Below are positions 3,481 through 36,788 of a stretch of 41,827 nucleotides of DNA, piece by piece (the stretch's first letter is position 1; every line of letters starts with the position of its first letter). The DNA comes from a virus, in UHGV virus genome UHGV-0360402; one strand, given 5' to 3'. The translations under genes and the position numbers were made by a program. The notes beneath the pieces were generated by a model. It was not told the origin of the DNA and searched no databases. It saw nothing but the letters and a program-made list of their open reading frames with translations.

Positions 3481-6132
3481 TTATTTTGATTCCAATAGTT
3501 CGAGTCGCTCTTCAATACGATCGCATCGGCGGCGCTGATATGCAGCCTCAAGCCAAGCGCACTGGTCAGGCCGTATGCCCCATGAACTACCCGCTTTTTT
3601 AACCAGCCTCTGTTCTCCGGTGTCATATTCGACGGTGACCAACTCACCAGACGCATCGGTAATCTCTTTAGTCGCGATTACCGGCTCAAAAATATCGTCC
3701 CACTCGTCATAGCAAAGAAGGCCAAATCTGGTTCCATCAATTCCGTGCGCCAGGAATACATCTCTTACCTGCTGAGCCATGACGCCAAAATGCCATCTGG
3801 CACCATCGCCCTTCATGGATATAGCGTCGAGCCATCGATACGCCACAACAGAAATATCGCCCCAGGCATCAAGAATGCTGTCTCTATCAGAAGAAAGCAT
3901 TTCACTTAAATCTGATATTGCCTCGGGATTGGTTTTCAGCGTGGCATCTGATGAAACGGTTGGGGCATTTGCAAAGTAGGCGTCTTTAATACGAAACGAT
4001 GCCTGACCAAAATTATAGGTATTGTCAGCAAACGGGCGAAGACCTGTATTATAAAACCGCCAGCGTATGGTTCCTCCCAATGCTGTCGGGTCGCTGTTGC
4101 ATGCAATATCCACCGTGGTGGCAGACCTAAACACAGAAGAACTACCGCCCAATACCAAGCTATTTGCGCTAGCTGTAGCCTGCTGGTCAAGGACCAATAT
4201 TTTCTGAGAGTTTGTAGTTGCACCGGCATATGATGATGCAGTGATGCGGTTTAATTGGTTTGTATCAGGATCTGCGTTTTGCTGAATGGTTAAGTTAGAT
4301 GCCCACTGTGCCGGTCGCTGGCGCACAAATACAAAGTCACCAGAAGGATTAGTTGCAACCAAATAACTAATGCCACTATCAGATGAATAATAGTTGACTA
4401 TAAAAGTCTGATTATTCGCATTCAGTATTTCAACATATGTGCTGGAAGGGATTGCCACGCCAGATATATCAGCAATGCTGACAGTCCCTGTGTAAAAATT
4501 AAATGCCTTCTGACTCATCTCCTGCATATAGCGAAGAATTTCAGTCATGTTAGTGAACAACGTACCATCTACAGGGTTAACAATCCCCTTCGCACTACGG
4601 GGATATACCCCAATGCTCGCGTGATCGATATCAAATCCGCGGTAAAGCCTGGATGCAGGTGTAAAATCGATAGCATCTTTATCAGTGGAGAAATCTTCGA
4701 AAATAACCAAACCTGAATTGTAAGGTTCAGAGCCAGTTCTTTCCTGATGAATGTAAAGTGAATAAATGGATTTTCCATCCTGAGAAACACAAACGCCTTC
4801 ATTTTCTATGCGAGTGACGTTCAATCCTGCGGCTTTCATTAAATCCATCATGGCCTGAGGATGAAGCATTGATTCAGTTCGCTTTGTACCGTCAGGGTTA
4901 AAAACTTTGCTGCCCTGATATTCGTTATATCCTGCGCTTCCTGCCCCATCAGCTATGAAGCCGCCATAGCCGCAGACAAAGTAGTTATCACCTACCGCAA
5001 TACCCTGACGCTTGTTGAAATAAGGCGCATAAGGTGAGGTGCTTTTAGTTACATACCCAACATCATGTAACGGCAGCGTTATAGTTGACAGGCGATTGAA
5101 ACCACTGTCGAACACTGCAAGTACAGTTCTTGTGATTTTCTGTCCTACTTCTGGCGCATTCTGCTCAACGAGCCATATACCTCTTCTGTAGCTGAACTGG
5201 TTGAATAATCCAACATCATGGTTTTGTACAAGAGGCAGATTGCTTCCGTATAATGCCCCCTCCATATTAAATTCACGCAGTATTCCGTTTGTGTGACCAA
5301 CAAACATTTTTTTTGGGCCATAGTCTGACGTAACCACGATTCCTTCAGCAGCGAAGCCTGGGCCGCCAGCCTGAACATAGAAATAACCTTGATAAATACC
5401 AGATATGTTAAATACTGCGACGACATTATTCGTCTGTTTAGGCTCAAATGGATAAGTGATGTATATCAAATCTTCGCTAACGCAGAATCCTTGAGGATAC
5501 ATATAAGTTGCTGACGGGTTAGCAGCCATAATCGCATCATATTCAGGAAAAAGAAGCGGCATCGTAGCTACAATCTTTCTTTGGTGATTTGTAAAAATAT
5601 CGTTTTTAGCGCTGTTAGGTGTAGGCGTTACACCTCCAGTAAAAAGATCATCAACATAACCTTTATTGACAGCATCGTTTCTGTCAGTGGCATTTGCTAG
5701 ATTTGATATCTTATTATTTTTTGCATCATAATAGTTAGCCAGAATGCTTGGTTTTATAAGTGCTAACCTCATCCATGAAAAACACTTTTGAATAAGCATT
5801 GTCAGTTTATCGAACGCGTCTTCATGTACCTCAGCGAAGAACTTACCCTGATTACGCAAATCAGTATCCTGCGTAACCGGGAGCTCTCGTGATATAGAAA
5901 TATGATAACCGTTAGCCAACGCCTTCGACAGAATTACATTACCGCCATTATATCCTCCAGCATTGGTTACTGTGTAGTCAGTATCCAGAACCAATTCTGT
6001 TACGTTCCCGTTCAGGTCAGACACCTGAACAACCAGGTCGGATTTTTTGAAAATACGGAAGGTATACGGAAATGATGTCGTAGCTCCGTTACCAGTGTAT
6101 TCGTTGTGGTCAACTTCGGTTGAGACCGTCAT
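3481..6132 (-). CDS. Tailspike / receptor-binding protein (883 aa)
   Basis: GGAG RBS; N-terminal ~150 aa resemble the T7 gp17-type adaptor-binding domain (FPYTF, TDYTV motifs); long C-terminal part likely receptor-binding or depolymerase. Confidence 0.8.
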   Translation of the reverse strand: MTVSTEVDHNEYTGNGATTSFPYTFRIFKKSDLVVQVSDLNGNVTELVLDTDYTVTNAGGYNGGNVILSKALANGYHISISRELPVTQDTDLRNQGKFFAEVHEDAFDKLTMLIQKCFSWMRLALIKPSILANYYDAKNNKISNLANATDRNDAVNKGYVDDLFTGGVTPTPNSAKNDIFTNHQRKIVATMPLLFPEYDAIMAANPSATYMYPQGFCVSEDLIYITYPFEPKQTNNVVAVFNISGIYQGYFYVQAGGPGFAAEGIVVTSDYGPKKMFVGHTNGILREFNMEGALYGSNLPLVQNHDVGLFNQFSYRRGIWLVEQNAPEVGQKITRTVLAVFDSGFNRLSTITLPLHDVGYVTKSTSPYAPYFNKRQGIAVGDNYFVCGYGGFIADGAGSAGYNEYQGSKVFNPDGTKRTESMLHPQAMMDLMKAAGLNVTRIENEGVCVSQDGKSIYSLYIHQERTGSEPYNSGLVIFEDFSTDKDAIDFTPASRLYRGFDIDHASIGVYPRSAKGIVNPVDGTLFTNMTEILRYMQEMSQKAFNFYTGTVSIADISGVAIPSSTYVEILNANNQTFIVNYYSSDSGISYLVATNPSGDFVFVRQRPAQWASNLTIQQNADPDTNQLNRITASSYAGATTNSQKILVLDQQATASANSLVLGGSSSVFRSATTVDIACNSDPTALGGTIRWRFYNTGLRPFADNTYNFGQASFRIKDAYFANAPTVSSDATLKTNPEAISDLSEMLSSDRDSILDAWGDISVVAYRWLDAISMKGDGARWHFGVMAQQVRDVFLAHGIDGTRFGLLCYDEWDDIFEPVIATKEITDASGELVTVEYDTGEQRLVKKAGSSWGIRPDQCAWLEAAYQRRRCDRIEERLELLESK

Positions 6133-6236: not shown

Positions 6237-6251
6237 TTACCTTTCAGGTGA
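6237..6251. promoter_or_regulatory. Operator-like site TTACCtttcaGGTGA
   Basis: Member of TTACC-N5-GGTAA family (one mismatch); 40 bp upstream of LexA box. Confidence 0.5.
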
Positions 6252-7497: not shown

Positions 7498-7577
7498 CGG
7501 GCACTGGCAAAATCCAGTGCCGGGATTGGTCTCCCGGATTACTAAGTGGCGCATACCACGCCAGACGTGGTTTTTTT
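7498..7577 (+). ncRNA. Candidate small RNA or terminated leader upstream of antA-like gene
   Basis: Promoter-like elements 7467-7496; two stable hairpins (gcactgg/ccagtgc; cggga/tcccg) then terminator hairpin ccacg/cgtgg plus T7; the overlapping 110-aa ORF lacks an RBS. Confidence 0.4.
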
Positions 7578-7735
7578 ATGCGTATAGCACAGTCATGCCA
7601 GAATTATGGTGGGCTGAATGGGGGTCCGAAAGGACGCCGGTACCACTTAGGCCGGTAAGACCAACTCCGTTCAGTTCACCACCATCTGATTGGTCTCAGC
7701 GGTGGTGATGTAATTCGCTAAGTGGAGACGCCATC

Positions 7736-8392
7736 ATGAACGCTCAACTCATCCCCGTATTCAACGGCACTATATCTAACGAAACAGCCCTACTTTGTAA
7801 TGCCCGCGATCTGCACGCTTTTTTAGGTGTTAAAAAGGTGTTTGCAGCATGGATTACAAATCGCATATCAGAATACGAATTCATTGAAAATCAAGACTAT
7901 ATTTTGCTTTCCAATTTGGGAAAGCAAACATCTGGTAGAGGCGGCCACAACCGCAAAGAGTACCACCTCACCCTTGATACAGCCAAAGAGCTGGCGATGG
8001 TCGAGCGTAACGAAAAAGGTCGCCAGGTGCGACGCTACTTCATTGAATGCGAGAAACGTTTAAGACAACAAGAAACAAAAGTGGAGAAGGTCTTGTCAGG
8101 CTTCATGCCCGCCATTATGGAGGCGATCAAGCTGGAAGACAAAAAAGAATACAGCGCCCCACTGAAGCCCGGCTACCGTAGCCTGATTCATTCGCCGTCT
8201 GGTGTTCTCGGCCTGACGGAGAACTCACTGCTGATGAATTTGCTGAACCAGTTACAGGAAGACGGGCACGACGTATCGGGCGCGGCGGCGGAACTGACCA
8301 CCATGTTCTGCTACATCGTCGGTGTGAGCAAATGCCTGCGTGATATCCAGACCCACGCGGAGTACATCAACGACAAGGCAGGGTTCTTCTGA
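7736..8392 (+). CDS. Antirepressor-type protein: AntA-like N-terminal domain fused to shared C-terminal module (218 aa)
   Basis: GGAG RBS; N-terminus matches AntA-type pattern ([39 protein letters not shown]); C-terminal 78 aa near-identical to C-terminus of 9256-10194 product. Confidence 0.8.
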
Positions 8393-23711: not shown

Positions 23712-24407
23712 TTATTTGCCATAGAGCACTTCGGCCGCACTACGCTGGCCTTCATTACCACCGGTGACCATGCCATCTTCAGACATCGCCTTTCCGATTT
23801 TCACGAACGTTTTGACCAGATCAGGGTGATTACCCAGCCCGGTGGTGTTCAGATATTCTTTGAGTTCAGGTGTCCCGAACTGGTCAAGCGCACGCTGTGC
23901 GACGCTAAGGTTAGAAATCAACTTGTCGCCACCGATTTCTTTGTCAGCTTTTACATCCGCAGCCCACTGCTCGGTTGTTTTCTGCCAGGCTTCTGCCTGG
24001 CGCTGCTGAACACCTGCCAGAATCTTCGGATAAGCATCAACCAGCTTTTGCGCTTGCTCGTTGGTCAGGTTAAGTTCTCGCGCCACCGGCTCGAATTCCT
24101 TCAACGCTTCTGTATCCAGCTCTACGCCTTCGGCAGCCTGAAACTCGTACTTCTCAGGCGCCCCCTCTGGTTTATCGCCGCCCTTTTTTTCATCCTGCTT
24201 ATCGTTTTCAGGCTTTTTGTCATCAGCAGGTTTATCGCCATCAGCAACAGGTTGTGGCTTATCGCCTTCCTGTTGTGATGGATCACCAACTGGAGCAGGG
24301 GTATCACCTGCAGGCGCTGACGGTTCTGACGCAGCCGGAGCTGCTCCACCATCGACTGGTTGCTCATTGCAAAGACGGCGATACAGCAAACGCTCAAATA
24401 AATTCAT
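23712..24407 (-). CDS. Scaffolding protein (about 231 aa)
   Basis: ATG 24407 with AGGAG RBS; Pro/Ala/Asp/Lys-rich low-complexity N-half, helical C-half; between portal and capsid. Confidence 0.65.
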   Translation of the reverse strand: MNLFERLLYRRLCNEQPVDGGAAPAASEPSAPAGDTPAPVGDPSQQEGDKPQPVADGDKPADDKKPENDKQDEKKGGDKPEGAPEKYEFQAAEGVELDTEALKEFEPVARELNLTNEQAQKLVDAYPKILAGVQQRQAEAWQKTTEQWAADVKADKEIGGDKLISNLSVAQRALDQFGTPELKEYLNTTGLGNHPDLVKTFVKIGKAMSEDGMVTGGNEGQRSAAEVLYGK

Positions 24408-24409
24408 GA

Positions 24410-24706
24410 TCACTCCTGTTCACTGGCCTCTTTGGCCATCTTCAAATACTGTTCAGGGCAATGCGCCATAACGCGCTGAAACAGTTCCAACGCCAGATTG
24501 CGTTGCCCCTCATTAAATGCCATTGCCATAGCGTCCATCGGTGAGATAGCGGAAAACACACGGCCTTTCTCCAGCACCGACCAGACAACGCGACGCCCCT
24601 GTTCACTGCTCATGACAAAGCGAATGTCATCAATTTCACGCTGCGCCATGTCACGTTGCTTACGGGCGTTTTCTTCTTTCAGTTGATCGTCTTCGTAATC
24701 TGTCAT
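24410..24706 (-). CDS. Hypothetical acidic protein (98 aa) between portal and scaffold
   Basis: ATGA overlap with portal stop. Confidence 0.5.
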   Translation of the reverse strand: MTDYEDDQLKEENARKQRDMAQREIDDIRFVMSSEQGRRVVWSVLEKGRVFSAISPMDAMAMAFNEGQRNLALELFQRVMAHCPEQYLKMAKEASEQE

Positions 24707-26382
24707 TGTGATTGCCCACCCTGACCACTAACTGCATTCGCCATAGCTGACAAAACACTCGGATCCGAAGTTTTAGCTTCGCTTAGCGTCTTGGCACCCT
24801 GTGCCGCCGCCATCCCCATCGCCATCATTTGTTGCTGCTGTTGCTGCTGTGCCCGTTGCTGGCGAGCCTGCTCAACCTGTTCCTGCGGAACAATGACGGT
24901 TGGAGACACTCCGGACATATCAGCGAATGCATCGATCGCCTGATCAACGTTGAGTTTGTCGAGAGCTTCTGGTTTCGCTTGCGCAAGTTGACCAATGAAG
25001 TTAACCGTGGACGCCAGACTGGACAGGCCGATAGACTTCTGCGCCTGAGCCATGACGGAAATGTATTCGACCTTCAGGGGCATGCCTTCCATCGCGTCAG
25101 GCGGTGGCGGCAGCATGTTTTTACGCACCATCATCGAGAAAGCGCGGTCAATGAGAGGATTAAGACATTCGTCGTTCAGACGCTCCAGAACCGGCCCCAA
25201 CATCAGAAGTTTTTCTTCTTTCATTTCGATCACCGCTTCAACAGGCATCGAGCGGGTATTGATGTTCTGCAACATCATGAACAGATCGACAAAGTAGGCG
25301 CTGTTAATGATTTGACGAGTGTCCTGAATGTCTGCCACCAAATCTGCTGTACTGGGGTTAACCAGATAAGCAGGCCTGAAGCCATCCTGACCAGTAATCT
25401 GATCGATATACGTGATGTCGCCAGGAAGAAGGGAGGCGCGCTGATTCTTGAGGGAAGTCGGAGCAACCATCGGCGGATTGGTGGCTTTATCAATCAACTG
25501 CGACTTGCGCTTCTGGAGAAGCTGCAATGCCTTAACAGGTCCAAGCGCCAGCATACCCGGGCATGATGATCCATAAACATCTTCGCCGTTAACTTCCCAG
25601 CGCGGAGCCATAATTGGAAACTCATCGAATCCGGACTCACGCAACAACTTGTCGTTATCGCCACCAATCTCGTAATAAACCGATTTGAATGGCTTGTTCT
25701 TGCTATCCAGCTTCGATGTATCACGGTCAATGTTCGGGTAAACCGAATGCATCACTTCAATCCACTTCTCGTAGGTGCCGCTTTCCCACATGCTTTTTAC
25801 GGATTCGCTGACGTTATTTAGCCCGAACTCCTGAACAAGCTGACGAACAGTCATAGAGAACTTGCGAAAACAGGTGTCCACACTGCCACGAGGTGAGTTA
25901 GCCAGGTAGTAACTGCCTATCGGGAATGGCATTGTGCGAATGATGTCCTCGTCATCCTCCAGCACTGCCATTGCACCAGTGCTGTATGTGCCGAGGCTTC
26001 CGTATAACTGCGGCAGCGACTGATAGAGATTCGACTTATTGAACATATCGTTCATGCGGTTCTGCACCGCCTCAAGCCACAACTTAACAGGGCCATAATC
26101 CATCATTTCAGGATCTGGCGTAGCCAGGCGAAACCACGGACGCGCGGGGCTTGTGATGCCTGACATCATGCCGCTGGCGAGAGTGCGCGCCGCCATAGTC
26201 CCGGTCGAATCAATAATGCGTGTATTGCGTCGATCGTTACGGTTGACCTCAGAAGTCAGAAAGCGGGAACCACGCGGATTGATGTAATCACTCAACTCGC
26301 GCCAGTGCGGCTCGAACGACTGACGCTCGCTTTCAAGTTGTGCGAACTGTTTGTTCAATCGCTCTTTAGTTGTTTCCGCCAT
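24703..26382 (-). CDS. Portal (head-to-tail connector) protein (559 aa)
   Basis: GGAG RBS; Q/A/M-rich C-terminal tail and overall pattern resemble T7 gp8-type connectors; precedes scaffold and capsid. Confidence 0.75.
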   Translation of the reverse strand: MAETTKERLNKQFAQLESERQSFEPHWRELSDYINPRGSRFLTSEVNRNDRRNTRIIDSTGTMAARTLASGMMSGITSPARPWFRLATPDPEMMDYGPVKLWLEAVQNRMNDMFNKSNLYQSLPQLYGSLGTYSTGAMAVLEDDEDIIRTMPFPIGSYYLANSPRGSVDTCFRKFSMTVRQLVQEFGLNNVSESVKSMWESGTYEKWIEVMHSVYPNIDRDTSKLDSKNKPFKSVYYEIGGDNDKLLRESGFDEFPIMAPRWEVNGEDVYGSSCPGMLALGPVKALQLLQKRKSQLIDKATNPPMVAPTSLKNQRASLLPGDITYIDQITGQDGFRPAYLVNPSTADLVADIQDTRQIINSAYFVDLFMMLQNINTRSMPVEAVIEMKEEKLLMLGPVLERLNDECLNPLIDRAFSMMVRKNMLPPPPDAMEGMPLKVEYISVMAQAQKSIGLSSLASTVNFIGQLAQAKPEALDKLNVDQAIDAFADMSGVSPTVIVPQEQVEQARQQRAQQQQQQQMMAMGMAAAQGAKTLSEAKTSDPSVLSAMANAVSGQGGQSQ

Positions 26383-26396
26383 TTCAATGACTCCGG

Positions 26397-26603
26397 TTAC
26401 TGACCAAGTAGCGTTTTACCGCTGGTATTAGCGGTTGATGTGTCGCCCTGAGAACCGGTAAGCAGCGTAGAACTACGACCAGCAGCAGCGCGACGGCGAC
26501 GTGTTTCTTCGTCGCGGGCATCAACAACGGCGGCATCCTGCTCCTGTGGTGCTGCCTGAACTTCTGGTGTTGCAGGCACTGATGGTGAGCTACCCATGCA
26601 CAT
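26397..26603 (-). CDS. Small hypothetical protein (68 aa) upstream of portal
   Basis: RBS GGAGTCATTGAT-ATG nearly identical to portal RBS. Confidence 0.5.
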   Translation of the reverse strand: MCMGSSPSVPATPEVQAAPQEQDAAVVDARDEETRRRRAAAGRSSTLLTGSQGDTSTANTSGKTLLGQ

Positions 26604-26693
26604 ATCAATGACTCCGTACGCAATTAAATTATTACCAATTTAACCACATATGATTTATCTATCGTAGATAGTTGACATTTAACGCACGAATTA

Positions 26694-26708
26694 TTACCTT
26701 TCAGGTAA
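26694..26708. promoter_or_regulatory. Operator-like palindrome TTACCtttcaGGTAA
   Basis: Perfect half-sites; about 90 bp upstream of 26603 start. Confidence 0.6.
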
Positions 26709-27030
26709 GCAAAGAGTTCATTCCGGTTATTAACCTGACTGGCTTGTCGTTAAATTAAACAGGTGGGGTGAGCTTTTATTTTGAGCAGTACGGCGTATGG
26801 CACATGCGCCGATAGCGGTCTGGATACGTTTAAGGGGCACCCTCCCTTGCTCGGGCAAACGAACCAGGTAGCCGGAATGTGCAAGTCGAGCGGTTTTATT
26901 CCGCGCACGGGGATTCACCATCCCGGCGATTCGGTGTGACGCCTCGGAAGAGACGAGGGTACAACGATGAGAGCATTTATGGAGCCGCGACAAAGTGTGG
27001 CGCCTTAACAGGCTAAGTGCTCTCAGCGTT

Positions 27031-27107
27031 GTGGCATTAGCTCAGTTGGACAGAGCAACCGCCTTCTAAGCGGTTGGTCGCAGGTTCGAATCCTGCATGC
27101 CACGCCA
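27031..27107 (+). tRNA. tRNA-Arg (anticodon UCU)
   Basis: Full cloverleaf folds by hand: 7-bp acceptor stem, D stem gctc/gagc, anticodon stem accgc/gcggt with loop cuUCUaa (anticodon 27065-27067), T arm gcagg-TTCGAAT-cctgc, encoded CCA. Confidence 0.9.
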
Positions 27108-27150
27108 GAATCACGCCTAAGGACCGTGATGCCAGAAGTTCCAGGTGCTT

Positions 27151-27192
27151 GGCGGTGATAGTTTCCCTTGAAGGACTATCACCGCCCTTTTT
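27151..27192 (+). terminator. Rho-independent terminator after tRNA
   Basis: 12-bp stem ggcggtgatagt/actatcaccgcc plus CTTTTT. Confidence 0.8.
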
Positions 27193-27270
27193 ACAGCAGG
27201 ACGCCATTGCGATGACTTCATGCTGTAAACCAGTACAGCCACGGAAGGCATAACTCATTGCTTCCAGTTC

Positions 27271-27294
27271 GCCCGGTTCGCCGGGCATTTTTTT
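27271..27294 (+). terminator. Hairpin plus U-tract immediately upstream of moron RBS (attenuator-like)
   Basis: gcccgg-ttcg-ccgggc then ATTTTTTT, ending 1 nt before AAGGTGAG RBS. Confidence 0.6.
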
Positions 27295-27305
27295 AAGGTG
27301 AGATC

Positions 27306-27725
27306 ATGAAGACAATTGATATGTTGGCTAAGTATCTAAATGAATGGCCATTAAAATATTCTCGTATCGTTCAGGCTGAAGACTGCATTTTTTATGGCGT
27401 TCTTGCTGGTAATGAAATGCATTACGAAGTAATTCAGAGTGAGGGACTGGCTGGGTTAACTCTTAGCGAAGACCATGGTACTAGCGTTACGTTCCATGAC
27501 TGGATAACAGCACAACGTTCTGAAATGGAAAAAGGCGATGTTTTTGATATTTCTCGCGCTGTTTACGCTAAAGCAAAAAGTGATAATGATTACATGAGCG
27601 AACACTTATACAACATGAAGTTGCAATGCCTGCATGCGGCGCTTATTCAGAATGGGCACTTCGATAAAACAAGTGCCATCAATATTGCGGAAGCCATCAA
27701 CGCTGGATTTAATGCCATTAAGTAA
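27306..27725 (+). CDS. Hypothetical moron protein (139 aa), opposite strand to packaging genes
   Basis: AAGGTGAG RBS; own terminator downstream. Confidence 0.65.
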   Translation: MKTIDMLAKYLNEWPLKYSRIVQAEDCIFYGVLAGNEMHYEVIQSEGLAGLTLSEDHGTSVTFHDWITAQRSEMEKGDVFDISRAVYAKAKSDNDYMSEHLYNMKLQCLHAALIQNGHFDKTSAINIAEAINAGFNAIK

Positions 27726-27729
27726 CACC

Positions 27730-27741
27730 GTGACATGTCAC
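27730..27741. repeat. 12-bp palindrome GTGACATGTCAC (copy 2 of 3)
   Basis: Exact; preceded by TAACACC as at copy 3. Confidence 0.8.
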
Positions 27742-27745
27742 AAAC

Positions 27746-27772
27746 AGCCAGCCGATGAGCTGGCTTTGTTTT
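27746..27772 (+). terminator. Rho-independent terminator
   Basis: agccagc/gctggct stem plus TTTGTTTTA. Confidence 0.75.
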
Positions 27773-27815
27773 ATCCTCATCAGAGGATATCAACGACATT
27801 ATCCCCACCAGCAGA

Positions 27816-29291
27816 TTAAGCATATGGATCGTAATCTGTGATGGCCTTGCCTTGCTGGTTCTGCTGCCCGGGAATTCGCAGACGCTTCGACACAGGGAAC
27901 GCAAACGTCAGCAGTAGCGCATCGCCTTTACCAGGAGAACGCCCAAGCCGCTCCTTGATATCTTCCTTCGGTTCGATAACGATTTTACCGTCCACTCGAA
28001 CTTTGTACTCTGCCGCCGACAGGTCGTCCGCTGTTTCCTGGTCATCCAGCATGCCGCCCAGCCTCAGCCATGTCTTACATGAGTTGAACATCTCCCCGCG
28101 CTTGTTGAGCATCTGAGGGTCAGTTGACGCACCACCGAACGGAACAAGTTGCCATGTACGACCCCAGCCATCACCGATTGACTTCAGACCGGTTCCGTAA
28201 CCGAAGTCGATGAACACCGCGTCAGCATTGTACTGGTCTTCAAAGTCAGCGATACGCTTCGCCATAATCAGATCGTCGGTGGTCTTGTTACCAGTCCATA
28301 GCACCTTACTGTGCAGCCCCTGCCGCAGGTATATCACCGCGTCATCAACGCCTGAGTATGCCGGGTCAACGCCGATTATCACCGGAGCATGTGCAACCTG
28401 CGCAGCGGTGACCACCCGTTTCATTGCCTCGTCAGTAAGTCCGGTAGGGATAAACTGCAATTCAGATGCATCCGGGAATATGCCGCGCACACGGATTTTA
28501 ACGAAGTCGCTGTCTTCCCCGTAGTCATCAACCCATTTCTGCAACTGCTGTTTGTTAGTGCCTTCCACCGTCCGGCTGTCAATCTGCGCAGTTTTCCAGC
28601 GGTGTTTGTATTTGCGGAAACATTCGCGAAAACGCCCGGTATTACGTGTAGGGTTTCCGAACGCCACCCAGATAATCTCAGTGTCTTCGTCCGTAAGCGC
28701 ACCCTCAGCAACTTCCCACACCAGATCCGCAATGTTCGACGCTTCATCGAATACCACGATGATGCGTTTTCGCTCGTTGTGTAGTCCGGCGAATGCCTCA
28801 GTGTTGTGCTCAGACCAGGGGATTGCGTCAGCTCGCCACCGCTTGTCGTGCCCAGGATCATTGCTGTACATCGCGGTAGCGGTACAGGTAAACCAGTCTT
28901 TCGTGATAGCAAGGTTCGACCACTTGATAATTTCCGGCCAGGTCTTCGTTCGTAGCTGGTTGTCGGTGTTGGCGGTCACCACGACCTTACAATCCTCGCA
29001 AGTGGACATGCCCCAGTTGATCAACATTGAGATGTATGCTGATTTACCAATACCGTGACCCGAAGCACGTGCCAGCATAAGCGGCTGATAGCGCGTCTCG
29101 GGATTCTGCAGGTGATCACGTATCTCTCGGAACGCATCGGCCTGCCACTGACGTGGGCCGGTAGCATGTGCCAGTTCAGTCCCCTCTTCCCCCCACGGGA
29201 ACGCATAGAGGGCATAGCCAAGCGGATCGTGAGTGAACCCTGCAATATCCTCGATCAACTGCTCTTCAGGAGATAACGCTGCATCTGTCAC
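27816..29291 (-). CDS. Terminase large subunit (491 aa)
   Basis: GTG start coupled to terS stop; Walker-A-like GHGIGKS, acidic VVFDEAS and nuclease-region motifs. Confidence 0.85.
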   Translation of the reverse strand: MTDAALSPEEQLIEDIAGFTHDPLGYALYAFPWGEEGTELAHATGPRQWQADAFREIRDHLQNPETRYQPLMLARASGHGIGKSAYISMLINWGMSTCEDCKVVVTANTDNQLRTKTWPEIIKWSNLAITKDWFTCTATAMYSNDPGHDKRWRADAIPWSEHNTEAFAGLHNERKRIIVVFDEASNIADLVWEVAEGALTDEDTEIIWVAFGNPTRNTGRFRECFRKYKHRWKTAQIDSRTVEGTNKQQLQKWVDDYGEDSDFVKIRVRGIFPDASELQFIPTGLTDEAMKRVVTAAQVAHAPVIIGVDPAYSGVDDAVIYLRQGLHSKVLWTGNKTTDDLIMAKRIADFEDQYNADAVFIDFGYGTGLKSIGDGWGRTWQLVPFGGASTDPQMLNKRGEMFNSCKTWLRLGGMLDDQETADDLSAAEYKVRVDGKIVIEPKEDIKERLGRSPGKGDALLLTFAFPVSKRLRIPGQQNQQGKAITDYDPYA

Positions 29292-29893
29292 TGATTGCCA
29301 TCCTGACGTTCTTTGAGTCGCTTCCTGGCTGCTGCTATGCGATCAGCAATTGTCACATTCACATTAACATCCAGGCGTTCTTTGAATGCGTTGACGTCGA
29401 CGTGCTTACCAATCAGTTCGAGGTTCTTCACCTTGTCAGGCCATTTAATTTTTTTGAGGATTGTCTCTATCGAATCCTCGTTCATGTTCATGATGGTCGA
29501 TGACAGATCAAAGCCACTAAGCGTAGTGCGCCAGATTTTCGGCCACTCGCGGATTGGCTTAAGGCTCCCATCGTCGTTGAGGATATCGATCACGTCCATC
29601 TGGTCGATCTCCACCAGGCGCATGAGAACGTAATCAGCACTGACGCGCATTCGTTTGTTGCGCTCCTCCATCAACTCGGCAATCCGTTTTTGAATGCGTT
29701 CATCGCGCATCATGACACTGGCTTTAACTGCCGCTGTATTTGGGGAGAATCCTGCGTTAATCGCTGCCTGAGTCTGGTTTTCAGGCGTTTTGATGTATGA
29801 CTGGCAATAAGCCTCCTGCATTGCTGTGAGCGGCTTAAATTGCGTTGATTTGCGTTTATAGGTTTTAGGTTCAGCAGGCATCATAACCACCAT
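29288..29893 (-). CDS. Terminase small subunit
   Basis: Immediately upstream of and coupled to terL; start taken at ATG 29893 (alternatives 29884/29881); the ORF-track TTG 29962 start would put an operator inside the coding sequence. Confidence 0.65.
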   Translation of the reverse strand: MVVMMPAEPKTYKRKSTQFKPLTAMQEAYCQSYIKTPENQTQAAINAGFSPNTAAVKASVMMRDERIQKRIAELMEERNKRMRVSADYVLMRLVEIDQMDVIDILNDDGSLKPIREWPKIWRTTLSGFDLSSTIMNMNEDSIETILKKIKWPDKVKNLELIGKHVDVNAFKERLDVNVNVTIADRIAAARKRLKERQDGNQ

Positions 29894-29901
29894 GGTAATA
29901 G

Positions 29902-29916
29902 TTACCGTTGTGGTAA
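29902..29916. promoter_or_regulatory. Operator-like palindrome TTACCgttgtGGTAA upstream of terS
   Basis: Perfect half-sites, flanked by direct GGTAATAG repeats. Confidence 0.55.
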
Positions 29917-29958
29917 TAGTACCATGCAAAATAAAGCCGCCATAGTTGGCGGCAGTAT

Positions 29959-30171
29959 TCAAAGTCCATCAAATTCATCGTAAAAACTCTCGTCAAGATA
30001 CCCTTCCCATTTACCGCGAATGAAAATTACATCCTCGCCGCAAGGGTGCTGACTGTCGATAACTATATCCCTCCTGGCGCAACCATACTTATGCATGAGA
30101 AATTTAACCTCTTTCGGAAAATTTGCTGAGTTATCTCTCATATCTTCAAGGTCGTAGCGTATTTTTGGCAT
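29959..30171 (-). CDS. Hypothetical protein (70 aa)
   Basis: ATG 30171 with AAGGTG RBS; directly downstream of palindrome copy 3. Confidence 0.5.
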   Translation of the reverse strand: MPKIRYDLEDMRDNSANFPKEVKFLMHKYGCARRDIVIDSQHPCGEDVIFIRGKWEGYLDESFYDEFDGL

Positions 30172-30180
30172 AACACCTTC

Positions 30181-30192
30181 GTGACATGTCAC
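30181..30192. repeat. 12-bp palindrome GTGACATGTCAC (copy 3 of 3)
   Basis: Exact; overlaps stop of 30189-30527 gene; preceded by TAACACC. Confidence 0.8.
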
Positions 30193-30527
30193 ACTATTAA
30201 TTTCGTTTCATGCCAGCCTTTAGTCACCCAGCATTGCGAGTCACCATTACACGGGCATGAATTTACAGGAACTCTCTCGCCGCACTTACCGCAACGTTTT
30301 CTGCTGATCGATTTTATACGCCCGTGCACGCGTGCATCATCCTGGCGGATCAGTAACGCTATATACTCACCAAATTCGTAAGGCGCACGCCCGGGGCGAC
30401 GCGTGGCACAGTTACGCTCCAGCATTTCAATTTCCTGAGCATCAAGCACAATCTCCAGCTTACGCACACCAGATGCAGCTTGTCTGGCTCTCTGAGCGGC
30501 TTTGCGCTCTGCTGCTGATTTAGCCAT
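30189..30527 (-). CDS. Hypothetical protein with C-terminal Cys cluster (112 aa)
   Basis: AGGA RBS; basic N-terminus; CGKCG...CPCNGDSQC motif; last gene before the late block. Confidence 0.5.
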
Positions 30528-30861
30528 TCTGATTTTCCTGCATCATGAGAAATACAATCATGGCGGCGCGGAGAGGTCTGGTATCAAATATTGGTCTTAC
30601 GCCTTTTGCATCAACACACCATTCAGTTAACTGGTCTAAGATAGAAATCCTGTGTTTCTCAATAATCGGCCATGAGGCGCTAGGATCATTGCAGTAGTCA
30701 GGTAAAGGGTTTAATGGCTCAAAAGTTGTATCAGTATTTCCGTAATACCATTTGTTGGTGTTATTCCCTGATGTTTCCGGTTTACATGCCCAAAGGCCTT
30801 TAAAAATTATGTCTCCTACCATTCTGTTAATTTCAAAATCACTTAACTGTGAATAGTCCAT
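30520..30861 (-). CDS. Hypothetical nin-region protein (113 aa)
   Basis: AGGAGG RBS before ATG 30861. Confidence 0.5.
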
Positions 30862-31667
30862 CACTTCACCTCCTGCGGCGGTTCCGGTAGCGGCATCCAG
30901 TGAGTTACTTTCGATGCCGGTTCTTCCCCATCGTCAGTAACTGCCCACCATTTGTTTCTCGACCAATCGTAATACCCTTCGAAGGTATTGCACTCAGTCC
31001 AGCCGTAAGACTTACCCCAACACCAAACATACTGTTTATCGTTCGGCATTCGCTCACTACAGCTTATCCAACCATCCGGAGTCACCGGAAGCGAGAACGG
31101 CAGCACATCTCTGTGAACAAGTTTTTGCTGTGACAGGTTATCCAGAACTTTCTGTACTGCTGCATCACCGAATACACCAAGCGCATCTGCCATAACTCCT
31201 ACAACCTGATAAGCCTCAGCGCATACCGTGGATAAACCATCCGGAATTACCGGAGAGTTGCCGGGTTCTTTAATGTGCAAGCGAGGCTCACCATCTTTTG
31301 GTTCAGGCCACTGGCGCTCCATGTTGATCTTCAATTTATCTTCCATAGCAGCGGTAATTTCAGCATCGCTGATGCCAGCACGGCGCTGTGCATCCCACAA
31401 CAGGAAATGCATATCAGCCCACTCGCTGAGATCGTCTGGTTCGGCTGCGGCTTCCAGAGCCTCTTTTGAGAGGTGTTTCAGTGGACCAATGGGGCCAACG
31501 CAGCCAAATGTGGAGTCAGACCATTTGGCATGCTCGTGGCGAATCAGTTCGCGTTCCAGTGATGCCAGTGCAATTCGTGCCAGTTCCATTTGTTCGCCAC
31601 GAGTAAGCCCGTTTTCAAGCGGATTTTTAATGAACAATTCAATACGTTCTTTGGTAATAGTGGTCAT
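30861..31667 (-). CDS. DUF550/DUF551-type two-domain phage protein (268 aa)
   Basis: N-terminal helical region and C-terminal W-rich domain ending HWMPLPEPP, typical of the lambdoid DUF550-DUF551 fusion. Confidence 0.6.
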
Positions 31668-31677
31668 TTGTTATGCC

Positions 31678-31875
31678 TCAATACACGAAATCTGTTTTAA
31701 ATTCATGGTTACATTCTGGACAGCATGTTTCGTAACCTTTTATTTCTTCACATGCCTGTTTAGCTCCAGAAAACTCCCAGAAATCAGCATCACAAAGCAG
31801 ATCGAAATTGTGACCGCATTTTGGGCATTCGGTATCAAGTGACAGATTCCAGTAAGCAGTGGTGTTTTTATCCAT
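31678..31875 (-). CDS. Small zinc-ribbon protein (65 aa)
   Basis: AAGGAG RBS before ATG 31875; CPKC...CPEC. Confidence 0.5.
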   Translation of the reverse strand: MDKNTTAYWNLSLDTECPKCGHNFDLLCDADFWEFSGAKQACEEIKGYETCCPECNHEFKTDFVY

Positions 31876-31876
31876 A

Positions 31877-32320
31877 TCACTCTCCTTTGATGCGAATGCC
31901 TGTTGCAATGCTGTTTATGATGCTGTCAGTGCATGGGGTAGAAAGCTGGGCATCTCCAGCAATTTTCATGACCTCAACATCTGCATATCGAATACCGAGG
32001 TGTATCAGACCGGCTATGCCTGACTTAAGCCGAGCATTTTCCATAAATAGAACTTTTGCCCGCTGTTTTTCTGCTTCAAGCTCAACGCGCAGCTTCCCTA
32101 CCGTTAGCGCAATTTCCTCGTTCTCCTGGTCGCGGGATTTGATGTATTGCTGGTTTCTTTCCCGTTCATCCAACAATACCAGCGCGATATCTGGCGAAAA
32201 GTGCTTCATAAAATCGTTAAGCGCATTAATTCGCTGATCGAAAGGCATTACAGGTGCTTCACCAGCAATTTTTGTTTTTTCAGCGATTTCACGAAGCTTT
32301 TGATAATCAATCTTGCTCAC
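31877..32320 (-). CDS. Hypothetical protein, possibly Ead/Ea22-like (147 aa)
   Basis: GTG start with AAGGAGG RBS; coiled-coil centre. Confidence 0.5.
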   Translation of the reverse strand: MSKIDYQKLREIAEKTKIAGEAPVMPFDQRINALNDFMKHFSPDIALVLLDERERNQQYIKSRDQENEEIALTVGKLRVELEAEKQRAKVLFMENARLKSGIAGLIHLGIRYADVEVMKIAGDAQLSTPCTDSIINSIATGIRIKGE

Positions 32321-33758: not shown

Positions 33759-34559
33759 TTACTTGATAAATCCTGCCGCCTTTCCCCGCCTGTATTCCTC
33801 CATCAGCCACTGCGCCGGTGTTATTCCCCCAAGGGTGGCGGCGTTAGGCATGCACCCGAAACTTCTCCCTGGTGGATGGTAAACGTCTCTCCCTGTGCCC
33901 GGAGGTGTACTCATGGGCTCTGGCTTTGCCTGTATGCTGATCACCGGATCGGGTATCTGCTGTCCGGAAGCCACCTTTTTCGCCCAATCATCGAGCAGCC
34001 TGCGCGCGTGTTTCTCAACCTCAATCTCGCTAAGCTGGCGCTGATACATTGCACGGCGGGTATCACATACGACCCAGTACATAACCGGATGTCGCCACGG
34101 GAATCTTTCGGGACCACCAGGATATAAACTTTTTTCCTTGCTGTACCGGTGAAACTCCGCCATCACATCATCAATGGTGACGCCAAGAACCATCTTGCTG
34201 TCTTTACACCACTTGATGAATTGCCCTGGCGACGGCCAGAACGGAGACTCACTGGCGCGGGCGTGGCGCATACCAGCAGAAACCTGTTCACGGGTTCGGA
34301 TCCCCCCTTCGGCAAACGCAGCAATCCACTGCTGTTTTGCAGCAACTTCCTGCTCTGGCGTCTTCAGGTTGGTTACCACTGCCGCCGGAAACAGTTGTTT
34401 CAGCTGTTTGAAAAGGGCATCAACAAGCCTCTCTGCTGACATGTTCACCACGTTGTCATTGTTGGTGTACTGATGCTCATAACCTGACATGCGAGAAAGG
34501 GCTTCTCCGTCACGGTTTTGTATCGCGGTAAAAACGTTGTTCACAAGAAATCCTCCCAT
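33759..34559 (-). CDS. Replication protein P-like helicase loader (266 aa)
   Basis: QWIAAFAEGGIRTREQVSAGMRHARASESPFWPSPGQFIKWCKD aligns with lambda P core QWVLAFRENGITTMEQVNAGMRVARRQNRPFLPSPGQFVAWCRE; start could be later. Confidence 0.8.
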   Translation of the reverse strand: MGGFLVNNVFTAIQNRDGEALSRMSGYEHQYTNNDNVVNMSAERLVDALFKQLKQLFPAAVVTNLKTPEQEVAAKQQWIAAFAEGGIRTREQVSAGMRHARASESPFWPSPGQFIKWCKDSKMVLGVTIDDVMAEFHRYSKEKSLYPGGPERFPWRHPVMYWVVCDTRRAMYQRQLSEIEVEKHARRLLDDWAKKVASGQQIPDPVISIQAKPEPMSTPPGTGRDVYHPPGRSFGCMPNAATLGGITPAQWLMEEYRRGKAAGFIK

Positions 34560-35332
34560 GCTTCAGGGCTGTTCCAGTGCGGAACGTTGTTATCAGGTAA
34601 TGTTGATTGCTTCTGTCTGCTAATCTGCAGCCGCCTTGCCAGCTTCTGCTCCCACTGTGCCTGATGGTATGCCTTACCCTCAGCCATCCAGTAAATTCTG
34701 AACTCTGCAAGTTCCTGTGCCGTTGGCAGACTGTCCAGGTAGATCCCCTGCAATGAGCTTTTCCGAAGAAAGTCATCTGATGGCTGCCATTGTTCATGCA
34801 TGACAAATTTGCCTAATTGCCCTGGCCCACCAGGAGGAACAAAGTTATTCATCACGGCGTTGTTTGCGCCGGGGTCATGATGCACAGAATCCCCGGTTTT
34901 TGTCCTGCTCTCCCTCTCTTGGTTAAATGACTGGTTATATGACTGGTTCTGGATCCCGTTTTTGGGATCATTCAACATCCCGTTTTTGGGTATATTCCAG
35001 TTTTCGGGAACATTACCGTTTTCGGGTTCATTACACCCTTCTAGGTTGCCTTTAATGTTCCCTTTTTTGGTTATATTAAGAGAGAAAACCCGCACTCTTT
35101 TCGTCGCTCCCTTTCTCTCTCCGGTATCTGAAATAAGCCCCATTTTCATGAGCGATATAAGCCCGGCCTGTACGGTTTTTTTATTCAGGCAAGTGTCTTT
35201 AACGAGGCGTTCTATGCTTGGGTAGCAGAGGTTATATTCATCGGCTCTGTCAGCCATCGAGAGCAGTATGAGCTTTAATGACGAGCTACCTGGATCTGTC
35301 TCCCAGGCCCAATCTGTTGCATGTCTGCTCAT
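34541..35332 (-). CDS. Replication initiation protein: N-terminal HTH, C-terminal DnaT-like domain (263 aa)
   Basis: GGAGA RBS; central Asn/Gly-rich linker; C-terminal DSLPTAQELAEFRIYWMAEGKAYHQAQWEQKLARRLQ matches DnaT-type domain; upstream of P-like gene. Confidence 0.7.
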   Translation of the reverse strand: MSRHATDWAWETDPGSSSLKLILLSMADRADEYNLCYPSIERLVKDTCLNKKTVQAGLISLMKMGLISDTGERKGATKRVRVFSLNITKKGNIKGNLEGCNEPENGNVPENWNIPKNGMLNDPKNGIQNQSYNQSFNQERESRTKTGDSVHHDPGANNAVMNNFVPPGGPGQLGKFVMHEQWQPSDDFLRKSSLQGIYLDSLPTAQELAEFRIYWMAEGKAYHQAQWEQKLARRLQISRQKQSTLPDNNVPHWNSPEAWEDFL

Positions 35333-36083: not shown

Positions 36084-36668
36084 ATGAAAAGTATCCAGGA
36101 CGTCCGCAGGCAAAATCTCAACGACTTGATCGACCGTGAATTCAATGGTGTTCAGACGCGGATGGCAGAAAAACTTGGAACTCAGGCAAATCTGGTAAAC
36201 CGCTGGGCTCTTGGCAAGAAGGTTATCGGCGACCAGGTTGCGCGAAAAATTGAAGCTGCCGCCAATAAACCCCGTAACTGGCTTGATATCGATCGCTCGC
36301 TTTCTCAGGAAGGTTTTCAGCCTGTCGGCCCAAGCGACATTGGTCAGCTGGCAGCTCACAACCTGGAACGCTGGATGAGTGAAAGCCGCGACCTTTCAAC
36401 TCAGGGAAAACTTCACCGCGCATCCGGCGTCGCCCAGGTGACAATAAGCCGCCTGTTAAACAATGAGGTCAGCGTTTCCATTTCCACCCTGGAGAATGTT
36501 GCATCTGCATTCGGGCGTCACGGATATGAACTACTGATTCATCCACATGACCCTGCAACTATCAACTATGACCGCTCGCGCTACGCATTGTTACCTGAAA
36601 CAGAGAAGGCAAAGATCGAAAGTTACATTGAATTTGTCATCAACCAGAACGAAAAAAACAAACAATAA
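36084..36668 (+). CDS. Prophage repressor candidate (194 aa), HTH, no S24 peptidase domain
   Basis: N-terminal HTH (GVQTRMAEKLGTQANLVNRWALGKK) and second HTH-like segment; no Ser/Lys autocleavage motifs; divergent from cro-like gene; own terminator. Confidence 0.65.
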   Translation: MKSIQDVRRQNLNDLIDREFNGVQTRMAEKLGTQANLVNRWALGKKVIGDQVARKIEAAANKPRNWLDIDRSLSQEGFQPVGPSDIGQLAAHNLERWMSESRDLSTQGKLHRASGVAQVTISRLLNNEVSVSISTLENVASAFGRHGYELLIHPHDPATINYDRSRYALLPETEKAKIESYIEFVINQNEKNKQ

Positions 36669-36759: not shown

Positions 36760-36788
36760 TTGACATCAAACCAGATACGCATAATTAT
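36760..36788 (+). promoter_or_regulatory. Candidate rightward early promoter TTGACA-17-AATTAT
   Basis: Consensus -35; -10 overlaps operator at 36788. Confidence 0.55.

Follow-up and report, generated by a model that had tools for sequence, protein, structure and literature searches.

An apparently undescribed pseudoknotted RNA in a predicted early unit of an Escherichia coli prophage, shared with lambdoid and P1-like phages

Introduction

Among the structured RNAs of phages and prophages, GOLLD, ROOL and species 1 and 2 of phage T4 lie beside transfer RNA (tRNA) genes or contain them, carry a variable periphery around a conserved core, and have no known function. The eps-associated RNA (EAR) of Bacillus, a chromosomal and pseudoknotted RNA of about 120 nucleotides (nt), sits inside its operon and promotes read-through of the terminators downstream; the put RNA brings about terminator read-through by binding the zinc-binding domain of the beta' subunit of RNA polymerase. 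In phage HK022, put is about 70 nt long, folds into two stem-loops and acts on host RNA polymerase without phage proteins (PMC9378689). Here we describe a 1212-base-pair (bp) island at positions 26604-27815 of UHGV virus genome UHGV-0360402, a stretch of 41,827 nt (hereafter the window) which, from its sequence, is an Escherichia coli prophage of the phiV10/epsilon15 type (Uetakevirus). The island holds a gene for tRNA-Arg(UCU) and, ahead of it, the structured RNA that is our main subject.

Comparative evidence identifies positions 26788-26962 of the plus strand as the core, about 175 nt long, of a conserved pseudoknotted RNA family in its own right and not a decayed tRNA. It belongs to a conserved, predicted non-coding transcription unit (26672-27302) that runs opposite in strand to the late genes. 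The family appears to be new and undescribed, though P1 carries it, as do about one in three complete E. coli genomes. Close study of P1, of the phiV10/epsilon15 group and of the Shiga-toxin phages has left it unannotated in all records examined, yet it is among the most conserved sequences that they share.

A conserved, pseudoknotted RNA core

The core was delimited by a covariance model (R1), by covariation and by its homologues. R1 scores 146 bits against the window, its sole match there, with an E-value of 6e-45 that is rough, as the model was calibrated quickly. Read from 5' to 3', the core comprises helix P1 (26791-26796/26806-26811); helix P2 (26819-26822/26865-26868), which encloses a variable hairpin; a nearly invariant 19-mer, GGUAGCCGGAAUGUGCAAG (26867-26885); a further variable hairpin at about 26889-26906; helix P4 (26910-26913/26921-26924) with the loop UUCACCA; a pseudoknot, CACC:GGUG, between 26916-26919 and 26933-26936; and helix P5 (26942-26946/26954-26958) with the loop GAAGAGA. 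Folding of the single sequence is marginal and uninformative, with z of -1.7 on one strand and -2.0 on the other; the signal from comparison is very strong.

The fetched loci contained 96-99 distinct core sequences, depending on the cut, and these formed 39 clusters at 92% identity. The structure tested consisted of P1 (taken as 26791-26799/26803-26811), P2, P4, the pseudoknot and P5. Across 27 representatives (alignment A2), 97.1% of cells were paired, against 29-53% with slid partners, and 11 pairs had changed on both sides; the covariation score of 0.316, against 0.135 in shuffled alignments, was reached by none of 500 shuffles, a statistic that kinship among the sequences inflates, so that the slid-partner control is the safer comparison. 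When 76 distinct sequences were aligned to R1, and thus in an alignment fitted to the model, 98.1% of cells were paired (27-50% when slid), 12 pairs were compensatory, and again none of 500 shuffles reached the observed covariation (0.283 against 0.122). The pseudoknot, though left out of R1, was paired in 99% of cells with 17 compensated sequences, and reads AACC:GGUU in the lambdoid group.

Between the helices, which change compensatorily, A2 contains invariant blocks: UGGCACAUG, AGCGGUC, the 19-mer, the CACCA loop, GGCG and the GGAAGAG loop. The apical part of P1 is contradicted by uncompensated changes in A2, and the P1 loop GCACAU could pair instead with AUGUGC of the 19-mer, both sides being invariant and so without covariation. 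G-U pairs are frequent (e.g. 26793:26809 and 26910:26924), as fits an RNA read from the plus strand, which is also the strand of the tRNA. The invariance of the 19-mer is partly built into the IMG/VR sample, which was seeded with its exact sequence; it is nearly invariant also among the homologues derived from BLAST and in a second core copy in one IMG/VR contig (GGAAGCUGG...). This contig (L026) carries two tandem cores about 650 nt apart, at 4803-4960 and 3996-4155 on the minus strand of the locus, and in the second of them GGAAGCUGG replaces GGUAGCCGG and GGCC replaces GGUC.

A protein gene hidden on either strand (candidates being the 87-amino-acid minus-strand open reading frame (ORF) at 26730-26993 and mEp460_037) was rejected, as homologues have variable hairpins of unequal length and share no conserved open frame: across the core, no reading frame is open in more than 29 of 75 distinct homologues (39%). 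The first-pass annotation, made from the letters of the window, had seen no credible ORF in the 300 bp upstream of the tRNA, and in this it was right, as the region is non-coding and structured. Its suggestion that the stems here are tRNA-like, the remains of a decayed tRNA or a mere processing leader, did not hold. ARAGORN finds a single tRNA (at 27031), the Rfam models for tRNA, transfer-messenger RNA and all other families are silent in 26700-27030 at E<=10, and the RNA family of the core occurs with no tRNA beside it in 12 Uetakevirus-type loci and in all lambdoid loci examined, which argues against a decayed tRNA.

Distribution and absence from annotation

Core-like sequence was found in 86 phage records and in 590 plasmids, mostly non-mobilizable and P1-like. 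Positions 26790-27035 are 70-83% identical to unannotated DNA of very different phages: lambdoid phages of the SfV/mEp460 kind (mEp460, cdtI, 2H10, Ayreon, twelve Stx2c phages, Stx2a_1447/WGPS2 and 1720a-02), P1-like phages (P1, P7, D6, SJ46 and RCS47), Salmonella SPN1S and PAT1, Enterobacter Tyrion and Klebsiella phages. The exact 19-mer, GGTAGCCGGAATGTGCAAG as DNA, occurs once in the window, where 0.01 copies are expected, and in at least 120 IMG/VR contigs. Of 24 species-representative genomes that contain it, all are Enterobacterales save two metagenome bins; these two, labelled Oscillospiraceae and Bacillota (L139 and L151), are metagenome-assembled genomes in which contamination or mis-binning is likely. 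BLAST with the 175-nt core matched 1839 of 5426 complete E. coli genomes, around a third, with up to four copies per genome and 554 on plasmids. K-12 has no core copy in its e14 prophage, the sole K-12 prophage checked.

Annotation of the core is all but empty. None of ten E. coli matches, among those listed, overlaps an annotated feature, and in the records shown nothing lies over the core save a few 'hypothetical protein' ORF calls such as mEp460_037. Such calls lie antisense to the core (the mEp460_037 type; 26730-26993 of the minus strand in the window, 2943-3311 in L001) or antisense to the tRNA and terminator (the PhiV10p04 type; 27037-27288 of the minus strand in the window, 3434-3685 in L002), and both types are probably spurious. 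Rfam 15 has no match to the core at gathering thresholds, the tRNA is the only real match at E<=10 within 26300-28000, and in eight related loci nothing in Rfam overlaps the core. The P1 record, with its 534 features, leaves empty the 286-bp spacer between trnI and ban that holds the core. In the literature, including a 2025 review of phage small RNAs, we found no account of this RNA; an earlier remark in the 2004 P1 genome paper is possible.

A predicted early promoter under repressor control

Upstream of the core, the sequence offers a candidate early promoter on the plus strand, with a -35 element TTGACA (26672-26677), a 17-nt spacer and a -10 element TACCTT (26695-26700) overlapped by the palindrome TTACCTTTCAGGTAA (26694-26708). 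Both TTGACA-N17-TACCYT and the palindrome hold their positions in Tyrion and PAT1 despite differing spacer sequence. The pattern TTACC-N5-GGTAA occurs 13 times in the window (at 6237, 7357, 7450, 8465, 26694, 29884, 29902, 33645, 33707, 35966, 36014, 36726 and 36788) against 0.83 expected. Two pairs of copies flank the repressor gene, 35966/36014 on one side and 36726/36788 on the other; several others lie in the antirepressor region, and the promoter just downstream of the repressor gene (TTGACA at 36762) resembles the island promoter in that an operator abuts its -10. Together these palindromes are probably the operators of the prophage repressor, for which the candidate is a 194-amino-acid helix-turn-helix (HTH) protein encoded at 36084-36668 on the plus strand (PHROG transcriptional regulator/repressor; Pfam HTH_3), the putative regulator of the island promoter. 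The repressor of phage ZX5, reported as identical to that of phiV10, has been shown experimentally to block lytic development (PMC9782041). The copies are scattered over the prophage in the manner of the C1 operators of P1, with sites also at the 5' end of terS.

The island promoter and its repression are thus predictions, well supported ones. As the -10 overlaps the apparent operator, the unit should be shut off in the lysogen and turned on at an early stage of lytic growth, and the island would be an early lytic non-coding unit and not a lysogen-expressed moron. The first-pass annotation had cast the 139-amino-acid ORF of the island (ORF139) as a moron gene, a framing that we abandon: ORF139 has no promoter of its own, and the sole promoter-like signal visible in the island is that at 26672-26700, overlapping the apparent operator. 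With its ribosome-binding site (RBS) abutting a terminator there is no room for another promoter, and of the promoter and terminator of its own that a moron requires, only the terminator (t3, below) is present.

The antirepressor region, which resembles immI, carries RNAs of its own: by Rfam, isrK (7501-7577, 67.7 bits), the C4 antisense RNA (7602-7686, 61.2 bits) and sar RNA (10196-10263, 45.2 bits), with an AntA-domain antirepressor ORF (7736-8392) adjoining. C4 and isrK are also present in mEp460 and Stx2a_1447.

Modular surroundings of the core

The 5' leader of the predicted transcript (26709-26787, plus strand, placed by alignment A1 with a putative start) contains a degenerate copy of a hairpin module, ..GUCGUUAAAU..GG(U/C)GG(A/G)GUG(A/C)GCUU.., that is intact in relatives; the leader is less conserved than the core. 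On the 3' side (26963-27030) lies an extension hairpin, delimited by alignment and by eye, whose closing stem pairs GAGAGCAUU (26969-26977) with AGUGCUCUC (27016-27024) and is followed by the junction AGCGUU. By eye, this stem holds inserts of 40 to more than 150 nt in different phages, very different in length and sequence in mEp460, Stx2a_1447, Klebsiella and Tyrion, and in two loci (L041 and L076) it reads GAGCGCACU/AGUGCGCUC, a compensatory change. T-arm-like hairpins (GGUUCGAUUCC; CUGGUUCAAUUCCAG, GUCCGUUCGAUUCGGAC and CCCGGUUCGAUUCCGGG) occur in peripheral inserts of Stx2a_1447 (L008) and L076, in or after the extension hairpin; of the two, L008 alone was scanned with ARAGORN, which found no tRNA. 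In some loci of lambdoid phages and of Salmonella PAT1 (L035, L036 and L006), conserved non-coding sequence goes on for another 500 nt or so, some 100-620 nt past the 19-mer, with a CCCAGACGAUAUCUGAGUGG module and further modules of the form 'GAC + hairpin with GGAAGAG loop'. It seems that the RNA is built of modules and can far exceed the core in size.

Beyond the tRNA, the plus strand continues with a trailer (27108-27193) made up of a small hairpin (27110-27115/27125-27130), a single-stranded stretch and terminator t1, with a 14-bp stem at 27151-27186 and U5 at 27188-27192; trailer and t1 are laid out like a 3'-end small RNA. The inter-terminator segment (27194-27302) ends in terminator t2 (stem 27271-27286 with six G-C pairs, U7 at 27288-27294) and the RBS AAGGUGAG (27295-27302), such that the T7 of t2 is directly followed by AAGGTGAG and the ATG at 27306. 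A third terminator, t3 (27746-27765, the element running to 27772), closes the island before the convergent terL, at a place where phiV10 is annotated with a rho-independent terminator. The scanned stretch has four terminator-like sites, every one of them on the plus strand, and t1, t2 and t3 each have the GC-rich hairpin and U-run of a predicted intrinsic terminator. The scan thus bears out the earlier description of a strong terminator followed by a second hairpin and U7 next to the RBS of the 139-amino-acid gene.

Comparison does not support the further proposal that t2 is an attenuator specific to this gene. The t1 stem is conserved with compensatory changes across 12 Uetakevirus-type loci, and the t2 stem covaries (GCCCGG/CCGGGC, GCCCAC/GUGGGC, GCCCGC/GCGGGC). 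Both terminators and the 80 nt or so between them are conserved, and homology runs through the U-run and, in eight of the 12 aligned, the RBS, ending at the start codon; t1, t2 and the RBS are kept in relatives with different ORFs or none. ORF139 (27306-27725, plus strand) matches PHROG 4846 of 'unknown function' (E 2e-88) and no Pfam family, and its single-sequence AlphaFold model is unusable (predicted local distance difference test score 41). In relatives the slot is filled by a gene resembling Sf6 gene 66 (phiV10), by DUF2829 or by the Gp49 family; one locus (L103) has the RNA and both terminators with no ORF, and another (L067) a 9-codon remnant only. From this distribution ORF139 looks to be one of several cargoes of a conserved promoter-less slot, and the tRNA-Arg, the cargo ORF and several peripheral hairpins emerge from the alignments as exchangeable accessories. 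The slot behind t2 would then be a conserved cargo site whose expression depends on terminator read-through.

Two terminator modules recall host small RNAs. The t1 segment (27140-27187) aligns full-length to the DicF family RF00039 with 16.9 bits (E 1.5), so far below the gathering score of 48 that t1 was rejected as DicF; an alignment to a DicF sequence is suggestive only. After the core of L041 (7558-7677), and also in L076 and L013, a terminator module resembles RprA (49.7 bits in L041, against a gathering score of 70), sharing the string GCUGUGUGUAGUCUUUGCCC, which presumably falls in the seed and terminator part of RprA; the L041-type module could be a phage-borne RprA mimic. RprA-like and DicF-like modules, both under their family thresholds, may be 3'-end small RNAs. 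The Tyrion island between terL and portal (L005, 3708-3772) holds an int-alpA RNA motif (44 bits against a gathering score of 35.8), another sign that terL-portal islands gather non-coding RNAs.

The tRNA-Arg(UCU) gene and arginine codon use

The tRNA-Arg(UCU) at 27031-27107 of the plus strand starts 68 nt after the core, has the anticodon TCT and encodes its CCA at 27105-27107. ARAGORN and the Rfam covariance model agree on it (RF00005, 73.3 bits against a gathering score of 29), so that it is as well formed as the first-pass annotation had claimed; with the two terminators, it is real but ordinary. Among 42 Uetakevirus-type loci it was found in 28, and 12 others, with sequence enough for a judgement, lack it; it is annotated at the equivalent place in O157 typing phages 9 and 10, SPN9TCW and a Klebsiella ST512 phage. 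Tyrion and mEp460 have no tRNA here, and their domain is closed by GUGGUGA...CACCAC at the place of the window's acceptor stem GUGGCAU...AUGCCAC. On this comparison the tRNA is best described as an optional insert within a larger conserved RNA unit.

The tRNA had been proposed to support moron expression, on the ground that morons of this prophage use AGA/AGG for nearly all arginines. The premise is true of a few small low-GC ORFs (8680-9120, 10525-10986, 11029-11640 and others), in which the two codons make up 61% of arginines, though this is only 17 of 28 codons; the prophage as a whole is also rich in them, with 12.8% AGA and 22.5% AGA plus AGG among 764 arginine codons. In E. coli AGA and AGG together account for a few per cent of arginine codons. 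The premise fails in that the 98 AGA codons belong for the most part to large virion genes and to genes in the non-structural block (10 in 3481-6132, 10 in 11652-14666, 13 in 14666-17383, and six in 34541-35332 of the non-structural block), and ORF139 has none. With the codons to be served mostly in virion and other non-moron genes, the proposed role is not supported; the tRNA-Arg most likely supplies AGA decoding for AGA-rich lytic genes, a role that fits an island turned on early and not in the lysogen. The three adjacent plus-strand ORFs named above (GC content 0.32-0.36, with 50-100% AGA/AGG among their few arginine codons) look like recently acquired cargo.

Genomic contexts

In the window, the island is a plus-strand insert between terL (27816-29291, named after the phiV10 annotation) and a 68-amino-acid gp3-like ORF (26397-26603, from the ORF list and the phiV10 annotation), with the portal gene (24703-26382; Pfam Head-tail_con, E 3e-187) beyond the latter and terS (29288-29962; Pfam Terminase_2) beyond the former. 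All four late genes are on the minus strand, in agreement with phiV10, and the earlier placement of a functional-looking tRNA-Arg(UCU) between terL and portal, opposite in strand to the packaging and head genes, is therefore correct. The 1212 bp are 100% identical to the chromosomes of several E. coli strains (e.g. SCU-101), and aligned parts are 94-99% identical to phiV10, TL-2011b, O157 typing phages 9 and 10, ZX5 and HEMP4.

A survey of 130 loci gave a wider view. In 42 Uetakevirus-type loci the RNA is encoded opposite in strand to the gp3-like/portal genes and terL, which flank it, and t1 and t2 are both present wherever enough downstream sequence is available to judge. In 17 P1-type loci about 12 nt separate tRNA-Ile(CAT) from the start of the RNA, and about 100 nt its end from the gene that follows, ban or, in a variant, another. 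In 28 it lies 140-240 nt downstream of a cI gene like that of mEp460, and the remaining 43 are of other kinds. Of these 43, nine were examined; each has a plus-strand ORF that ends 140-340 nt upstream of the RNA, with a small divergent ORF beyond it. Six such upstream ORFs, from mutually divergent loci, encode CI-type repressors (HTH with S24 peptidase, or HTH alone). By eye, lambdoid loci have a repressor gene with its own terminator, then a PL-like promoter with operator-like repeats (TTGACC-17-GATACT in L013, TTGACA-17/18-TACATT in L036, TTGACC-17-TAATAT in L041 and TTGCAT-17-TATCTT in mEp460), and the core 10-140 nt further on. In mEp460 a Q-like gene but no N is annotated, and the early-left operon has about 14 genes. 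For P1/P7, the ban operon is annotated with the C1 operator Op72; in P1 this operon, which carries the core, also has in its leader an annotated 'dicF-like region' (L157, 369-470), where the Rfam DicF model does not reach E<=1.

In each of the three unrelated phage types the RNA thus belongs, in sense, to an early operon: the Uetakevirus island, the lambdoid PL operon and the ban operon of P1/P7. Repressor control is annotated in P1 and predicted from the operator palindromes in the window; in the lambdoid phages the RNA comes after a PL-like promoter with operator-like repeats. A strong intrinsic terminator follows 220-650 nt past the core in 82 of 111 distinct loci, with none before ban in the P1 type; a tRNA directly adjoins the core in 45 of the 130 loci, and 99 of 100 sources have a single core copy.

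Proposed function and alternative explanations

Our preferred interpretation, put forward tentatively and as falling somewhat short of probable, is that the core is a cis-acting antiterminator in the manner of put and EAR. On loss of the repressor, host RNA polymerase would start at about 26708 and transcribe core, extension hairpin and tRNA; a cut by RNase P at the 5' end of the tRNA would part core from tRNA, and stops at t1 or t2 would yield the tRNA and small-RNA-like 3' fragments. The core would act on the transcribing host RNA polymerase, like HK022 put or Bacillus EAR, such that some polymerases read through the conserved terminators into promoter-less genes, namely ORF139 in the window, the early-left operon of lambdoid phages that lack N, and ban in P1. 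Several features favour action in cis: in its operon the RNA always comes ahead of the coding genes; from promoter-less genes it is separated, in two of the three contexts, by conserved intrinsic terminators; eight of the 12 aligned relatives have a conserved RBS abutting t2, with different ORFs behind it; and mEp460 has its long early-left operon and Q-like gene with no annotated N. That the same blocks are invariant across phages of otherwise differing gene content argues for a host partner.

A number of points weigh against this interpretation. We infer the transcription start, the processing and the read-through alike from sequence; the consensus promoter scan did not call the island promoter, whose -10 matches at 3 of 6 positions only. 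The core has no sequence or structural similarity to HK022 put, and with one copy per locus in 99 of 100 sources there is no counterpart of putR. In P1 a distance of 2.4 kb, with tRNAs and tci genes, separates Pban from the core, and no terminator turned up ahead of ban. L103, with no ORF, and L067, with its 9-codon remnant, keep the RNA and both terminators and therefore retain the RNA with no obvious target for antitermination. The tRNAs in direct contact, on one side or the other, would suit a released RNA acting in trans just as well.

Such an RNA is the chief alternative, and one that we regard as less likely though a serious contender: a stand-alone, trans-acting molecule, cut out by tRNA processing and termination, which binds a conserved host factor during early take-over, with RNA polymerase holoenzyme, a ribonuclease, a tRNA-binding enzyme or a defence protein as candidate partners. 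RNase P or 3'-end processing would free the RNA from the tRNAs that adjoin it in 45 of 130 loci (tRNA-Arg 68 nt after the core here, tRNA-Ile(CAT) about 12 nt before it in 17 of 17 P1-type loci), with GOLLD/ROOL and T4 species 1 and 2 as analogies; the unit is closed by terminators and kept in loci without cargo; its surroundings are rich in RNA (int-alpA in Tyrion, the RprA-like module of L041, the 'dicF-like region' of the P1 ban operon); and the invariant blocks suggest a host partner. It leaves unexplained, however, why the RNA always sits near the promoter and in sense ahead of terminators and coding genes, and the lambdoid early-left operon would still need a means past the terminator behind the RNA.

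Two further possibilities have no specific support. Several small ribozyme classes are associated with phages and tRNAs, and the compact pseudoknotted fold, its many invariant unpaired nucleotides and the same phage and tRNA association would suit a catalytic RNA, self-cleaving or other, at work on the early polycistronic transcript, for example to release the tRNA or to define a messenger end. We consider this improbable, as no Rfam ribozyme family matches even at E<=10, no conserved candidate cleavage site was identified, and RNase P and the terminators already explain the transcript ends. A riboswitch-like leader that senses a ligand or tRNA and sets early transcription past t1 and t2 would accord with the 5' leader position ahead of terminators and the high conservation of the core, yet it is more improbable still: the terminators are 190-550 nt off, beyond a tRNA or other domains, the core shows no evident alternative pairing with a terminator, and the genes downstream are unrelated among the three contexts. 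Least credible of all is the decayed tRNA or passive processing leader within a lysogen-expressed moron, to which the abutting tRNA and the GGUUCGAUUCC hairpins in the inserts of L008 and L076 lend some colour, since it meets no tRNA-model signal, a family that does without a tRNA in 12 Uetakevirus-type loci and in the lambdoid loci examined, conservation and covariation far above what a pseudogene would show, and a promoter bearing an apparent repressor operator.

Known elements were also considered and rejected. As regards a nut-like site, mEp460 has no annotated N, and in six loci the ORFs that come first after the RNA do not, by eye, resemble N; boxA-like strings show no enrichment (109, against 134 on the reverse strand), and the P5 loop GAAGAGA has 7 nt and is not a boxB pentaloop. 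The RfaH ops element is matched by GGUAGC in the 19-mer at 6 of 12 bases, by eye only, and the 19-mer region lacks the C that the ops hairpin needs. As for a CsrA sponge, roughly 10 GGA motifs were counted by eye in about 490 nt, with about 8 expected.

Should the cis-acting antiterminator prove correct, RNA-only antitermination would reach far beyond HK022, as a second and far more widespread phage solution; and if the RNA modifies RNA polymerase, this would explain how lambdoid phages that lack N, some Stx2a and Stx2c phages among them, get past the terminator with which their early-left operon begins. A trans-acting RNA would offer a genetically tractable E. coli model for the enigmatic structured phage RNAs that are linked to tRNAs. 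In terms of class, it is conceivable, and again we would put this short of an even chance, that the RNA represents either a new class of RNA-only regulator of host transcription, unlike put and placed in early operons by at least three lineages, or a host-factor-binding RNA comparable to GOLLD/ROOL. The lineages that carry it are P1-like myoviruses, epsilon15-like podoviruses and SfV/mEp460-like lambdoid phages.

Comparison with known systems

The likeness to put is one of position: in both cases a structured RNA, in a lambdoid phage without N, follows closely on an early promoter under repressor control and has terminators after it, and the lambdoid copies occupy the place of putL. Unlike put, the core is about 175 nt long and has at least one pseudoknot besides its four helices; there is one per locus, with no copy on the PR side, and it is found in podoviruses and P1 as well. 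Homology to put was rejected: over positions 24000-32000 of HK022, a stretch within which the put sites were not located, R1 with filters off has a best score of 4.1 bits (E 2.3). With EAR the RNA shares a conserved, pseudoknotted nature and, in P1, a position in the middle of an operon; it differs in belonging to another phylum, in lacking any sequence relation or Rfam EAR match, and in being phage-borne where EAR is chromosomal.

GOLLD and ROOL resemble it in context only, through prophage location and, in 45 of 130 loci, an adjacent tRNA, whereas there is no Rfam match, its conserved core is much smaller and its hosts are Enterobacterales. The dicBF operon of the Qin prophage offers a parallel in organisation, as a repressor-controlled early operon in which a small RNA with its own terminator precedes protein genes; the ban operon of P1 combines an annotated 'dicF-like region' with the new RNA, and the t1 segment of the window is loosely DicF-like, though the core is unrelated to DicF and t1 scores 16.9 where 48 bits are required. 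Among phage tRNA-Arg(UCU) genes, finally, that of the window is canonical, with an encoded CCA and an AGA-rich phage around it; what is new is its insertion in a larger conserved RNA unit.

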